This document shows, piece by piece, positions 17,195 through 24,616 of a DNA stretch of 64,000 nucleotides. Position 1 is the stretch's first letter, and each line of letters starts with the position of its first letter. Origin of the DNA: a virus. A program made the translations under genes and the position numbers. The notes under the pieces are model-generated. The model saw only the letters and a program-made list of their open reading frames with translations. It had not been told where the DNA came from and did not search any database. The stretch spans positions 1-64,000 of IMG/VR virus record IMGVR_UViG_3300033149_005152; one strand, written 5' to 3'.

Positions 17195-17752
17195 TTACTT
17201 AGGAACAACAAATACACCAAAAGTTCCATTATCATCAGCATGAGTTATGATGCAAGAATCAGCACTTCGTGAACTAATATAAGGCGGAGGATTACTTTGC
17301 ATCATCGTGGCAGCACCAGAATTAAGAGGAATCAACATCACAAAACCATCAACTCCAATATTTGCATTCACAATGGAATCTGAAGTACCAGAAAAAACCA
17401 CACTAAACATTTGTAAATCGTCAAAATCCATAACCCCAGTCATTGTTCCACCAGCAAGAGGTAACATACCGTCAGTAGTAGCTTCGACAGAAGTCAACTT
17501 AGCAGAAGCGGTATCCAAAGTTGTTTCAACAGATGAAGCTTTAGTAACAGCAGTATCTAAAGTTGTTTCAGTAGAAGTAACTTTTTCAGATACAGTATCT
17601 AAAGTAGCTTCGATACTATCGGCAGTAGCCTCTATGGAAGTCAACTTTTCAGAATCACTTTCTAAAAATGTACCCAATTTAGGACCAAATTCTCCGCCAA
17701 GTGCGGGACACGCATGATTCAAACGATCAATTAGGTCAGCAGTCCAAGCCAT
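17195..17752 (-). CDS. Head decoration/fibre-like protein with S/T-rich ~14-residue repeats
   Basis: EATLDTVSEKVTST-type repeats; LPLAGGTMTG fibre motif; just downstream of the capsid gene. Confidence 0.55.
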   Translation of the reverse strand: MAWTADLIDRLNHACPALGGEFGPKLGTFLESDSEKLTSIEATADSIEATLDTVSEKVTSTETTLDTAVTKASSVETTLDTASAKLTSVEATTDGMLPLAGGTMTGVMDFDDLQMFSVVFSGTSDSIVNANIGVDGFVMLIPLNSGAATMMQSNPPPYISSRSADSCIITHADDNGTFGVFVVPK

Positions 17753-17795
17753 TTATATAAAAACACCTCATCTTTCAAATTTGAAATACGATACA

Positions 17796-18137
17796 TTAAT
17801 ATATATCAAAATTTTGGTCTGGATTCAAAATGCCCAATCCTTTACGCATTTCTTCACGCCAGACATTAAGAGCAATTTCATTGATTTCCCTTCCAGAACG
17901 CATTGTCATTATTCCTATATAAATTTCCCATAGAATTTTAAATGCTTCCTCTACATTCTTCTCCATTTCCATTTTTTCCTCTTCCAACCTGTTCACTTTC
18001 AACATATACAAATCCAATTTTTTTTCGCACTTTTCAATTTCAGAAATATTCTGATTTGATATTTCCTCACCTTTTATAACCCTAACTTTTGTCTTTTTCT
18101 TCATAATTTCCTCCAAAAATAAAAGGGAGAAATTCAT
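17796..18137 (-). CDS. Hypothetical coiled-coil protein
   Basis: ORF; likely start at MKKKTK after GGAGG. Confidence 0.55.
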   Translation of the reverse strand: MNFSLLFLEEIMKKKTKVRVIKGEEISNQNISEIEKCEKKLDLYMLKVNRLEEEKMEMEKNVEEAFKILWEIYIGIMTMRSGREINEIALNVWREEMRKGLGILNPDQNFDIY

Positions 18138-18181
18138 TTATTAAAACAATAAAATTGTAAATATAAATAAAACTTCTCCCT
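18124..18181 (-). terminator. Long-stem intrinsic terminator after the capsid gene
   Basis: AGGGAGAAGTT...AATTTCTCCCT stem with inner pairings, followed by TTTATTTTT. Confidence 0.7.
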
Positions 18182-18202
18182 GTCTGTCAATCAAATTTCA
18201 AA

Positions 18203-20322
18203 TCAACCAGCATAACCCTTTGCCATACCTTTTTCATTTTTAATTTCCGTAGTGTATTCACCAATAATCATACCCTTCTGTGAATCACCCGTAATAGAAA
18301 CCTTTTTATGAGCAAATGATCTACCCTGTAAATTTAGGACTCTAACTCTAGGAGTCGCAGTAATAATCAAAGAACTTGCTCGCATCCACCGACACAGCAT
18401 AACTTCCAACACACCAAAAGTTCCCTCGTAATAAGAAACTAAATTACGATGTTTCATTTCCGCATTATCGGTACGTGTGCGAGTGCTGTTCCATGTATCT
18501 ATAATACGCTTCCAATTAGCATCCACAGCAATAACATCAATATCACTTCCACCATTATCCCATGCCTTTTTTGTTATACTACCCAACCAAGATTCTGTAA
18601 GAGTAGCAAGAGACTGAGAATTAGTAGAAATCCTACTCCAAAGACCCTGCATTGTCCTATATGCAGTAGCACTACCAAGAGTATTACCAGATAAAACAGA
18701 CAAGAAAGTAGCCTGCTCCAAATCACGAAGCACTTCTCGCATCCTTTGACTCTGCTGATAAGTATACTCAGATGTTATATTACCCAGCTGAGTTACTGCT
18801 TCCTGGGTACCACTGACAATAATATCTTTTTTCATGATCTGGCAATAATTAGTTTTGCGAGACCTAGGTTGCGAAATATCCAGACTTACGTCTGAACCTT
18901 CCAATGCAGTTGAGTGTAAAACTCTAAAACTTTGACCCGCAGCATAAGAGGAAGCAACAGTTCCCCCAAAACTACGAGTTACAGTAAGAGTATTAGTTGT
19001 AGAATTATAAGTTATACTATTAATCCGAACATATTCGGTATTGTCTCCAACTGTAGGCATCATAAGTACATCGCCAGGTTGGAGAAAACGTCCATCGTTA
19101 TTAGTAAGTGTTACATTATCCTCAGTTGTAGTACCCATAGCAGTTGAAGAAACAACAGTAGCAGGATTCAACACATCTTCTAACCATTCCATTTTTGTTA
19201 CTATTTGCAACTTGCAAACGAAGTAGTCATTTCTGCTACTTTCTACATATCTCTATGCAGATCGGACTATATCATCACCAAATAAGGTGGGAAGCATGTA
19301 GTCTCTGGGCAAAAAGGAAAATAAATCTAATTAATTAAATCAATATCCTTATTTTCTCTAACATTTTTAATTAACTCTAAATCGGTAGTTTCATAAGGAT
19401 GATGGTTAGGTAATTTTAAACGTCTATCACAAAACTTTAAAAGATTTTCAGCTTTATGTTTTTTTCCTACTAAATACGGTATTAATTTAGGGAGAGAATT
19501 ATAACAACGCTTTATACCTTGTATAATAATCTCATATTTAATCTTCCATTCAGGATGCCTATTATTTTTTTTTGATTGCACATAATGAGGAATCCCTAAA
19601 TAATCCAACAATTCAATAGCCTGATTAATTATAATTAAATCAGTATTAACTATAGCTACTCTAGGATTCCATCCATTTTGTTTAACTTTAGAACTGCTAC
19701 GCTTAATAATAGTTACCATCCCCTCACCGTCTATAATACCACCTAACCAAAATAATAAATTTTCCTTTCTTTGCTGCTGATTGTCTAATATCAATTGTTA
19801 TCACCTCATTAGTAAATTGATCTCTAAAGAGTTTCCAGCATATAGCTTCCTTTAATCTCCACAAATTTACCTATGGAGAACATTACGTGCGGGATAAGGA
19901 GCATCACCAATTCTATCAAGAAAAGGAGTTTCATAGGGGCTTATCATCCCTATTTCTTCTGCTACATCCTCAGCAGTAACGTCAAAAACACCACTATCAT
20001 ATAAAGCTTTCAATTTTGTTATCGTGAAATCGTTTAAATTTCACTTCTTATAGTTTCCTATAAGTTCAGACTATTTCTTTCCTTTCGGAGAGGGCACTCG
20101 TGCTGATATTACCGGCATATCAAAAAAATGACTTAGCCTCGATCAATAGTCGTTGAACCCACCTAACAATTTCTTGTAAGGCTTGGCTTAGCGTTACCAT
20201 ATATAAATAAATCTTCATATTTATACTTAGGCTTCCACTAAATTCACCCTCTTTGCATCCATGAGCAAAAATCATATATCAATTTACTCATGATGGGGCT
20301 ATAACTAACCCGTAAAAGCCAA
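18203..20322 (-). CDS. Major capsid protein (SU10/DUF5309-like), 379 aa; exons 20308-20322, 19873-20010, 18203-19189
   Basis: Spliced product MAFTG|KALYDSGVFDVTAEDVAEEIGMISPYETPFLDRIGDAPYPARNVLH|EWLEDVLNP...NYCQI..VSGTQ..GEYT; TTG start with GAGGTG SD; all junctions in frame; follows the scaffold gene. Confidence 0.9.
19190..19872 (-). mobile_element. Group I intron 2 (683 nt) in the capsid gene, with homing endonuclease gene
   Basis: P1 CUCCAU/GUGGAG; P AUGCUGGAAA; Q AAUCAGCAG; R CAGAGACUA; S AUGAUAUAGUCC; P3 GGAAGC/GCUUCC; terminal G at 19190. Confidence 0.93.
19327..19794 (-). CDS. Single-motif LAGLIDADG homing endonuclease (intron-encoded)
   Basis: WLGGIIDGEG motif, I.NTD, PYLVGKK; TTG start after GAGGTGA. 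Confidence 0.9.
   Translation of the reverse strand: MILDNQQQRKENLLFWLGGIIDGEGMVTIIKRSSSKVKQNGWNPRVAIVNTDLIIINQAIELLDYLGIPHYVQSKKNNRHPEWKIKYEIIIQGIKRCYNSLPKLIPYLVGKKHKAENLLKFCDRRLKLPNHHPYETTDLELIKNVRENKDIDLIN
20011..20307 (-). mobile_element. Group I intron 1 (297 nt, no ORF) in the capsid gene
   Basis: P1 GGGU/GCCC with U.G at the 5' splice site; P3 GAGGGU/GCCCUC; R UUCAACGACUA and S AAGAAAUAGUC (P7); P9 GAAA loop; terminal G at 20011. Confidence 0.92.
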
Positions 20323-20383
20323 AAAAATCACCTCTAAATTTTACTTTTCATAATGAAAAATATTGTTATTTTTTATTTTTTTA

Positions 20384-21295
20384 TTAAGTTGCGGCAGCCG
20401 TATCCGCTTCCATTTCCTTTAATGCTCTTTTTTCTTCCATAAACTGAGCCATATGTTCCGGCCTGGTGGGATTATCCTCTGCTATCTTTTTCAATTGTGC
20501 CAATTTAGCCTTTTGAGATTCCAACATAGTAGATTTATCCTCACGTGTTTCTGAAGCACCAGACCCACCCGTTCCTGCCGCCTTTTTAGCCCACTTCGGC
20601 ATATCTTCTCTTATCCCATCAGATACAGATTTCTCTTCACCCTTTTGATTAATATATATCCATTTTTCATTTTCATCATCATATTGTAAATTATCTACAA
20701 ATAATTTAGATACATTACTAATATCTACGGCACCAGCAGCTTCACATGCGGCAGACAATAATCTATCTCTTTCAGCAAGTAAAGATTTTGTCTCAGCATT
20801 TTGTCTCATTTCTTCCGCCATCTGTACTCTTTTTTCCAGCTGTCTTATTCTTTTTGCTTGTTCCTTTTTTTCTCTAGCAGCTTCTTCAGCCTCTATTTCC
20901 CCCAATAATTCCTCTATATCTTCATCATCATAATCTTCTTCATCATCATCGTAATCTTCATCGTCATAATCCTCGTCATCATCATAATCATAATCATAAT
21001 CTTCATCGTCATAATCCTCGTCATCGTAATCTTCATCGTCATAATCCTCGTCATCATAATCTTCGTCACCTAATTCTTCATCCAGAACATCAAAAAATTC
21101 TTTAGATGCTTTAATTATCTCAGCATCATCCTCTCTTTGACTTTGTAATTGTTTTATTAACTTGTCTTGTTCTTTTATAGTCGTTTCTAATTCATCTAGC
21201 TTTTTATTAAACTTTTTATCATCCCCAGCTTCTCCCCTCTCGTCAGCAAGAAATGAATTCTTATAATAATTAAAAATAATATCCCATAAAACCAT
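20384..21295 (-). CDS. Capsid scaffolding protein with acidic DEDYD repeats
   Basis: Coiled-coil, GTGGSG near the C-terminus, immediately upstream of the capsid gene. Confidence 0.75.
   Translation of the reverse strand: MVLWDIIFNYYKNSFLADERGEAGDDKKFNKKLDELETTIKEQDKLIKQLQSQREDDAEIIKASKEFFDVLDEELGDEDYDDEDYDDEDYDDEDYDDEDYDYDYDDDEDYDDEDYDDDEEDYDDEDIEELLGEIEAEEAAREKKEQAKRIRQLEKRVQMAEEMRQNAETKSLLAERDRLLSAACEAAGAVDISNVSKLFVDNLQYDDENEKWIYINQKGEEKSVSDGIREDMPKWAKKAAGTGGSGASETREDKSTMLESQKAKLAQLKKIAEDNPTRPEHMAQFMEEKRALKEMEADTAAAT
20918..21067. repeat. Degenerate 15-nt tandem repeat encoding (DEDYD)n
   Basis: Read directly. Confidence 0.9.
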
Positions 21296-21296
21296 G

Positions 21297-21485
21297 TTAA
21301 ATACTTATCCTCCTTAACTTTTTATCCTTTCTTTTAACATCTCTAGGATCATACTCATAAAAATATTTACAACCACACAAACTGCACAACGCAGGTTTTA
21401 TTGTGGCAGACCCCTTTTCCATATGCAAACAATTAATGCACCAATAATATCCCCTTTTATTTAAATAAATATCATAATTAAACAT
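21297..21485 (-). CDS. Zinc-ribbon protein
   Basis: CINC...CSLCGC. Confidence 0.6.
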   Translation of the reverse strand: MFNYDIYLNKRGYYWCINCLHMEKGSATIKPALCSLCGCKYFYEYDPRDVKRKDKKLRRISI

Positions 21486-21496
21486 AACAAATTACG

Positions 21497-22096
21497 TTAT
21501 CCTATATACACATTACCCATAGGAACACGTATCTTCTTTCCCCGTTCTTTAATTGTAATAAATCTTGGAAACTTAACCTTTCTCGAAACGGATTTTATAT
21601 ACCCAGCTCCAGGTAAATTTTTATAAACAGTACCTTCTCTCCTATATATATCTCCAGGATAAGAACTTTCTAACTTTTTAATGGCAACATCTATATTCTT
21701 AACTTTATGACCAGACATAACCACTTTCTTACCACGAATACGATTAAGAAATTTACGAAAAATGCTCTTATTCTTTTCTGATTTTAACTTTTTCAAATAA
21801 TTTTCTTTCAAAGATTGTTGCCTTTTCATGGATTTAGAGGCTATTAATTGTTTTCCCTTTTTAGAAGAAGAATGATATTTCACATTCTGATTAATAGTAC
21901 CTTTAATCCTACTTAATGCAGCAATAACCCTTTTAGTAGTCCTTAACACAGAACCGTCAGAAAAAATAATCATTCGTGATTTACCTGATTTTTCGACAGA
22001 AGCTATAATCTTACCACGATAGTTTAATCCTTTTAAATGTCTCGAGGCACTTGATTTAATTCGCTTTCTTCTATGTCTGACAAATGATCCTGCCAT
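21497..22096 (-). CDS. Extremely basic protein (possible internal DNA-binding virion protein)
   Basis: K/R-rich throughout; located in the head module. Confidence 0.55.
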   Translation of the reverse strand: MAGSFVRHRRKRIKSSASRHLKGLNYRGKIIASVEKSGKSRMIIFSDGSVLRTTKRVIAALSRIKGTINQNVKYHSSSKKGKQLIASKSMKRQQSLKENYLKKLKSEKNKSIFRKFLNRIRGKKVVMSGHKVKNIDVAIKKLESSYPGDIYRREGTVYKNLPGAGYIKSVSRKVKFPRFITIKERGKKIRVPMGNVYIG

Positions 22097-24204: not shown

Positions 24205-24271
24205 TATTATTTAAAAGCACTTAACCCCCCTTTTTCTTTCAACTGCCTTCTGAAATTATCTATCTCGATAT

Positions 24272-24463
24272 TTAAAAAGCCCCCAATCTTCCCTCTCTTC
24301 TAATTCTATCTAATAATGGAGCTTTATTTCCCTCACAATAAAATTGAACCAACTTATCATCTCCTCCGTACTTAAAAAGATAATTCAAAATCTCATGGTA
24401 TATACCAATTGGATGATTTCTTAATAAATTTATCTTAATCATCTTATACTCCTTACTCTTCAT
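24272..24463 (-). CDS. Hypothetical protein
   Basis: Short ORF between terL and portal. Confidence 0.45.
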   Translation of the reverse strand: MKSKEYKMIKINLLRNHPIGIYHEILNYLFKYGGDDKLVQFYCEGNKAPLLDRIRREGRLGAF

Positions 24464-24616
24464 CTAAAGTCAGTGGTAAATCATTTAAAATATTCTCCAA
24501 TGCACTTATAGTTATATGTGCACCTGGCTCATGCTCTCGTAAATATCTTACATACCATTCAAAAACATCTATCGCATCACACCATTCTGCTTGTGTTGGT
24601 TTATCTTCCCACATTT

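Follow-up and report, generated by a model that had tools for sequence, protein, structure and literature searches.

The question raised by one locus in the 64,000-nucleotide stretch analysed here (the window, which is the first 64 kb of IMG/VR record IMGVR_UViG_3300033149_005152) is where the phage encodes the first part of its major capsid protein. The source record, from an uncultivated phage, is 98,585 bp long, carries direct terminal repeats and is rated complete; the long open reading frames (ORFs) of the window all lie on the minus strand, as do all of the window's features described below. The ORF at 19210-18203 matches the Pfam family SU10_MCP (PF17236, formerly DUF5309) only from profile position 44 onward, and the public gene call for the capsid locus is a 329-aa protein that lacks the first 51 residues and starts at an ATG that coincides with the 3'-terminal three bases of what we describe below as intron 2. 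Our analysis leads us to conclude that the major capsid gene is very probably split by two group I introns and spliced at GGT|AAA and CAT|GAA to encode a protein of 379 aa.

Joining the three exons by script (20322-20308, 20010-19873 and 19189-18203) produced 1140 nt, that is 379 codons and a stop codon with no internal stop, and both the exon coordinates and the junctions of the original prediction proved exact. The coding part of exon 1 (20308-20322, TTG GCT TTT ACG GGT) specifies MAFTG, which is the N-terminus typical of the family, and its last 4 bases take part in the P1 pairing of the intron that follows. The start codon is TTG, not ATG, and a Shine-Dalgarno sequence read from the DNA, AGAGGTGAT (20327-20335), stands 4 nt upstream of it. 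While a first exon of 5 codons had been proposed, this length applies to the coding part, and the 5' exon of the RNA also holds an untranslated leader. Exon 2 (19873-20010; 46 codons, KALYD...ARNVLH) is colinear with homologous proteins and matches SU10_MCP profile positions 8-43 with an E-value of 3.5e-5, although on its own it scores 23.9 bits, marginally below the cut-off of 24.1. Exon 3 (18203-19189; 328 codons and TGA, EWLED...KGYAG) matches positions 44-287 of the same profile (180.8 bits, E 5.5e-53), such that the profile is contiguous exactly at the junction of exons 2 and 3 (43 to 44). Among the annotated phages matched, the proteins are named major capsid or head protein. The public gene call covers exon 3 only; the expectation that automated annotation would miss both small exons is thus borne out by the collection's own 329-aa call.

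If the RNA were left unspliced, translation would stop almost immediately behind either junction, as had been anticipated: at TAG in the first codon of intron 1 (GGT|TAG) and at TAA in the second codon of intron 2 (CAT|AGG TAA). These stops bear on whether the two gaps could be inserts of another kind, namely inteins, group II introns or free-standing endonuclease cassettes within a capsid gene that is truly split. Inteins are excluded because the in-frame stops lie directly behind both junctions. Free-standing endonuclease genes do occur between the halves of phage genes (PMC9040626), but fragments of 5 and 46 residues could not serve as separate capsid subunits, the downstream fragments have no start signals of their own, and the only RNA family matched in the gaps is group I. 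We consequently give this explanation practically no credence.

Comparison with uninterrupted relatives provides an independent view of the junctions. Using exon 3 as the query, we obtained 407 homologues, the best of which are 54-55% identical and most of which are 370-380 aa long, as against 379 aa for the joined product. Within the 104 full-length homologues, 29 start exactly with MAFTG, nearly all start with M[APV]F[TSN]G, and 40 contain NVLHEWLED, the sequence that spans the second junction, without a change. When the joined protein was compared by tblastn with fetched DNA, a single uninterrupted colinear match ran over both junctions at about 36 IMG/VR loci and, for metagenome loci, at 59 of 80, the rest being mostly cut by contig ends. 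The homologue loci were found with an alignment query, as a single-protein query returned distant capsids only. Colinearity with intron-less homologues, which had been named beforehand as the test that could refute the proposed gene, therefore holds over both junctions in about 100 homologues. An alignment of 105 sequences places both junctions in highly conserved surroundings: residues F3 and G5 are conserved at 98-99%, and NVLHEWLED is the second best 9-residue window of the protein (0.900, compared with 0.904 for the best and a protein mean of 0.642).

Both gaps contain what the sequence anatomy identifies as a group I ribozyme. Helices were assigned by homology to stronger introns and then verified pair by pair with a script, since plain minimum-free-energy folding cannot show the P3/P7 pseudoknot. 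In either intron, all helices of the core from P3 to P9 can be drawn with complete pairing, except that P6 of intron 1 includes a single non-standard pair; P7 (GACUA/UAGUC) and J8/7 match the Rfam consensus in both. Each intron ends in a G immediately before its 3' exon, at 20011 and 19190 respectively. The U.G-containing P1, the P3/P7 core and the terminal G that the original prediction had assigned to both gaps are thus recovered as parts of a complete helix set. Searching with the Rfam group I intron model (RF00028) detected no match in the 98.5-kb genome, including the rest of the window and the other 35 kb, beyond the two capsid gaps. In this covariance-model search, which had been suggested as a check, intron 1 passes the gathering score of 50 bits, while intron 2 does not and is nonetheless matched at an E-value of 9e-7.

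Intron 1 (20011-20307) is 297 nt long and contains no ORF. It matches RF00028 at 20325-20047 with 62.5 bits (E 1.8e-13 in the 64-kb window). Its P1 (20311-20296) pairs GGGU|UA with UAGCCC at 6 of 6 positions, with the U.G pair at the splice site, and is followed by a P2 hairpin (20295-20256), P3 (20251-20246/20095-20090), P4 (20242-20236/20193-20187), P7 (20151-20147/20073-20069), P9 (20064-20047) and an extra hairpin, P9.1 (20044-20024), all checked pair by pair; the 3' strand of P8 (20082-20080) was read from the sequence. The intron is inserted in phase 0 after codon 5, only 15 nt from the start codon, which means that the Shine-Dalgarno sequence, the TTG start and the MAFTG codons of the capsid gene are on the 5' exon, with the remaining gene past the intron.

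Intron 2 (19190-19872) is 683 nt long, with an ORF in its P6 loop, and its match to RF00028 is a partial one (19448-19243; 34.8 bits, E 3.7e-5 in the 64-kb window and 9e-7 in a 1.6-kb region) in which only the P7-P9 half of the model is aligned. The weakness of this score can be attributed to the 468-nt ORF inside P6, which splits the ribozyme. P1 (19879-19856) pairs UCUCCAU|AG with UUGUGGAGA at 9 of 9 positions, again with U.G at the splice site, and a 4-bp P10 (19866-19863 with 19189-19186) pairs AUUU with GAAU of exon 3. Also fully paired are P3 (19850-19845/19295-19290), P4 (19840-19835/19780-19775), P5a (19821-19815/19796-19790), P6 (19774-19759/19322-19309), P7 (19303-19299/19269-19265), P8 (19289-19276), P9 (19260-19243), P9.1 (19241-19221) and P9.2 (19218-19204), the 3' strands of P8 (19279-19276) and P9.2 (19208-19204) having been read from the sequence. 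Against GenBank phages, blastn with this intron returned only matches of 35-37 nt, in the P9.1-P9.2 region near its 3' end. Insertion is once more in phase 0, between H51 and E52 and hence inside NVLHEWLED. Because both introns are in phase 0, skipping of exon 2 would also stay in frame (MAFTG-EWLED).

One other SU10-type lineage has an interrupted capsid gene (loci L009/L010, the same as L087/L088, and L150), with three apparent group I introns at L010:1017-4460. Its intron A, of about 1.05 kb, carries an HNH-type ORF and is inserted at S|M in DIISMISP. Intron B (314 nt) interrupts the Leu codon of NVL between its second and third bases and scores 95.9 bits with Rfam, and the P4/J4-5/P4' motifs of our intron 2 are close to those of this much stronger match. 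Intron C (944 nt) splits the Trp codon behind its first base and contains a 259-aa LAGLIDADG-like ORF. Between introns B and C there remains a micro-exon of 8 nt (2547-2554), and joining 1017-1108, 2164-2232, 2547-2554 and 3499-4460 of L010 gives a stop-free product of 377 aa, which aligns colinearly with the closest of its homologues that lack introns. Taking the two lineages together, three different insertion points fall within 9 nt of the sequence encoding NVLHEW. The sporadic distribution of the introns, with most relatives intron-less, and the presence of endonuclease genes fit mobile introns that home into conserved sequence.

Further irregularities are seen among the homologues. Two metagenome contigs, L103 and L117, start exactly at capsid residue 54 or 55, just past this intron hot spot, which could reflect an assembly break caused by mixed intron-plus and intron-minus variants, or chance. 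Three capsid homologues from ENA (P0009-P0011, 318 aa) start just past EWLEDD and end in ...EEGKFPCPN rather than ...EEGLARIF; their termini suggest that more introns may lie near both ends of the gene, a tiny last exon possibly among them.

The Rfam model ends at 20047, 36 nt short of the 3' splice site proposed for intron 1, and it is here that relatives of this intron are most informative. Bases 231-297 of the intron (its 3' 67 nt) are 82.6% identical by blastn against GenBank phages to the DNA-polymerase intron of Bacillus phage Bastille (AY256517.1), which encodes I-BasI and is one of the two closest relatives found. The annotated coding sequence of Bastille (join ..686, 1540..) sets the end of that intron at position 1539, and the terminal G of intron 1 (20011) aligns there, with the same 3' tail, ...AUAACAnAAUUG, at the splice site. 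P9 and P9.1 show compensatory changes between the two introns, whose P3-P7 regions are homologous too. The Bastille intron differs in that it resides in a DNA-metabolism gene, contains an HNH ORF and has no P2, whereas intron 1 has no ORF and does have a P2 hairpin. The other close relative is an unannotated group I intron of Streptococcus phage Javan576 (MK448987.1, L082:1262-1570; Rfam 59.8 bits), which is situated between two coding sequences both labelled 'portal protein'. At the 3' end it shares about 79% identity with intron 1; it also has the GGGU/GCCC guide of P1 and the layout of P1 plus P2 in common with that intron, and likewise interrupts a head-morphogenesis gene, though in this case that gene encodes the portal, not the capsid protein, of a temperate streptococcal phage. 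The 3' motif of this intron family is present in at least 108 IMG/VR stretches, and in none of the 80 loci fetched for it does it lie in an SU10-type capsid gene.

An alternative to the removal of intron 1 at GGT|AAA was also considered. Translation might instead begin at the in-frame TTG at 20013-20011, the last three bases of the intron, to give M-KALYD...; or a cryptic 5' splice site at a U.G pair within the P2 hairpin might be used, after CAUGAGU (20291-20285), to give M-S-KALYD..., with MAFTG reduced to a leader peptide. The TTG at 20013 is indeed in frame with exon 2, and in the hairpin CAUGAGU is followed by AAA and paired to GCUCAU, which is the sequence of the P1 of L010 intron C, while the first bases of exon 2, AAAG, could base-pair with a stretch of UUUU that precedes GCUCAU. 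On the other hand, a Shine-Dalgarno sequence, AGAGGTGAT, stands before TTG 20322 but before neither of the alternative starts; MAFTG is the consensus N-terminus of the family, with F3 and G5 almost invariant; and no overall similarity is detectable between intron 1 and L010 intron C. The hairpin can be explained as an ordinary P2, as Javan576, the nearest relative, shares the P1 guide and the P2 layout. We regard this alternative as highly unlikely, and continue to place the 5' splice site behind codon 5.

The same hairpin sequence, CAUGAGU-AAA/GCUCAU, is likewise identical to the capsid-gene codons for H-E-W, and its AUG is in frame with exon 2. The idea that it is a fossil P1, left when intron 1 moved from the HE^W site together with exon sequence, was considered and rejected, given the lack of overall similarity to L010 intron C and the same P1 plus P2 arrangement and GCCC guide in Javan576. 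We judge the likeness to the P1 of L010 intron C to be coincidental, yet the hairpin is a possible cryptic 5' splice site.

The ORF of intron 2 (19327-19794) encodes 155 aa with a single motif, LGGIIDGEG, and is probably a single-motif LAGLIDADG homing endonuclease, to judge from its sequence matches. It starts with TTG behind the Shine-Dalgarno sequence GAGGTGAT (19807-19800), a GAGGTGAT-spacer-TTG layout that it has in common with the start of the capsid gene. Its start codon is part of the 3' strand of P5a; from there the reading frame crosses P4' and P6 and goes on to occupy the P6 loop. With Pfam, the protein matches LAGLIDADG_3 (E 2.7e-4; 21.6 bits, the cut-off being 22.5) and, less strongly, LAGLIDADG_1 (E 0.01). 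All of the 25 best matches among PDB sequences are LAGLIDADG enzymes, I-CreI being aligned over residues 8-124 with weak E-values of 0.16-0.7. The best PHROGs match is phrog_5046 (E 4e-12), which carries the label 'HNH endonuclease'; we take this to be a loose label for the family. No match to the ORF was found in GenBank phages by tblastn, and it has no similarity to the LAGLIDADG ORF of L010. The arrangement follows a pattern described for bacterial group I introns, in which a P6 ORF overlaps the core and has a non-AUG start at a structured site, and a stop lies just inside the intron (PMC3073962); the intron 2 ORF has each of these features, with stops just inside both introns. As in T4 td with I-TevI, an endonuclease ORF in the P6 loop reaches into core helices, starts within the ribozyme structure and is associated with an in-frame stop past the 5' splice site, although td is a nucleotide-metabolism gene with a single intron and I-TevI is a GIY-YIG enzyme (PMC3073962).

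Several points weigh against this account of the locus. The score of intron 2 is below the Rfam gathering score (34.8 versus 50 bits), the P1 of intron 1 pairs just 4 exon bases, and no convincing P10 was seen for that intron. Even the nearest homologues reach only about 55% identity, such that no near-identical phage supplies an empty site at the DNA level. The endonuclease assignment draws on sub-threshold Pfam matches and weak PDB matches, and a single-sequence AlphaFold model of the ORF was uninformative (predicted local distance difference test score, pLDDT, 47). Finally, we infer splicing, its efficiency and the activity of the endonuclease from sequence. The first of these points is also what could be cited for a gene that is dead, with decayed introns that no longer splice, in a phage that is either defective or makes use of another capsid gene. 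What argues otherwise is that the record is complete with direct terminal repeats, that the three exons are open and conserved with 54-55% identity to the best homologues over their full length, that all core helices are intact in both introns and the intron ORF is open, and that the ORF list of the window yielded no further capsid gene of the SU10 type. A dead gene accordingly seems to us a very remote prospect. What the analysis establishes directly is the anatomy of the sequence, the model matches, the homology and the colinearity of the protein.

The mechanism that we propose for such a gene is conventional. Each ribozyme would fold after transcription and pair its guide with the end of the upstream exon (GGGU/GCCC in intron 1, UCUCCAU/GUGGAGA in intron 2); exogenous guanosine would then cleave at the 5' splice site, and the exon end released in this way would react behind the terminal G, joining the exons at GGT|AAA and CAT|GAA into an mRNA for the 379-aa capsid protein. 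On RNA that is still unspliced, the TAG in intron 1 and the TAA in intron 2 would keep ribosomes off the ribozyme cores. During co-infection the endonuclease would cut intron-less alleles at the conserved site, with repair driving intron 2 in.

The position of intron 1 adds a further consideration. Its guide helix (20311-20296) begins 12 nt past the start codon, within the stretch that a ribosome positioned at TTG 20322 or at TAG 20307 would cover, so that ribosome loading and P1 formation should be mutually exclusive. One could imagine that intron 1 serves as a gate on capsid synthesis rather than being a neutral passenger, with output set by a race between splicing and translation; if this were true, capsid output would perhaps be governed by the supply of GTP or by timing. 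We think such a gate unlikely. Regardless, an intron 15 nt past a start codon offers a way to study how one short stretch of RNA accommodates both splicing and the initiation of translation.

The original prediction implied that phage group I introns are rare outside DNA-metabolism genes, which is overstated in light of documented introns in capsid and other late genes (PMC3706429, PMC7886860, PMC12880540) as well as those in L010, in the Javan576 portal gene and in a further locus, L212. In mycobacteriophage LittleE (Cluster J; Pope et al. 2013), splicing of a capsid-gene intron was proven by reverse-transcription PCR and N-terminal sequencing (PMC3706429). As in the present phage, this is a probable group I intron in a phage capsid gene, with an exon ending in U, an intron ending in G and a LAGLIDADG-like ORF; the LittleE gene differs in having one intron, in belonging to another capsid family and in carrying the ORF on the opposite strand (PMC3706429), as opposed to two introns, an ORF on the same strand and a first intron 15 nt after the start codon here. 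For the crAss-like Zeta group, a capsid gene in five pieces that contains group I intron domains has been described (Yutin et al. 2021, PMC7886860). Jug phages have an average of 18.5 group I introns per genome, with reads that support splicing (PMC12880540). These too are metagenomic phages in which a capsid or terminase gene is fragmented by group I introns that annotation missed. They represent another lineage and capsid family with many introns per genome, however, whereas in our phage the capsid gene is the sole gene with detectable group I introns. The arrangement described here is thus already of a known sort; it is distinguished by having an intron only 15 nt into the coding region and by insertion sites that cluster within a single motif.

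The L212 locus (L212:2186-4842, IMGVR_UViG_3300044675_004353) holds a lambda-E-type capsid gene with 4-5 Rfam group I matches, of up to 107 bits, within 2.7 kb. Its last fragment matches Pfam Phage_cap_E (E 1e-9), and two of the group I matches hold ORFs, one with a NUMOD3 motif.

These results have implications for how such genes are read. The same annotation error hides introns in deposited phage genomes, an example being the Javan576 portal gene deposited as two coding sequences, and truncated capsid calls distort phylogenetic and host-range analyses because capsid proteins serve as markers in them. Mobile introns occupy the most conserved stretches of the SU10-type capsid family. If both introns splice as predicted, the present gene would also be another case in which the most heavily expressed late gene relies on two ribozyme reactions.

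The setting of the capsid gene is that of a normal head module, with the order terminase, portal, scaffold and capsid. The large terminase (26194-24617) is followed by the portal (24204-22576; phrog_145, E 3.7e-58), a probable scaffold, an acidic protein of 303 aa (21295-20384) that directly precedes the capsid gene, and, after the capsid gene, small proteins and a glycosyltransferase. The interval between terminase and portal (24205-24616, about 410 nt) is without an ORF of at least 100 aa and without an Rfam match. No transfer RNA was found in a scan of the window, and a promoter and terminator scan of 17700-21600 gave counts not above those of shuffled sequence. Right behind the capsid stop codon, at 18180-18116, there is a terminator-like element in which GGGAGAA can pair with UUCUCCC across a 41-nt loop, with a U-rich run after it; this loop exceeds the loop limit of the terminator scan. 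The first ATG listed for the next ORF (18137) falls within this element, and the real start of that ORF is more likely the ATG at 18104, which stands behind GGAGG.

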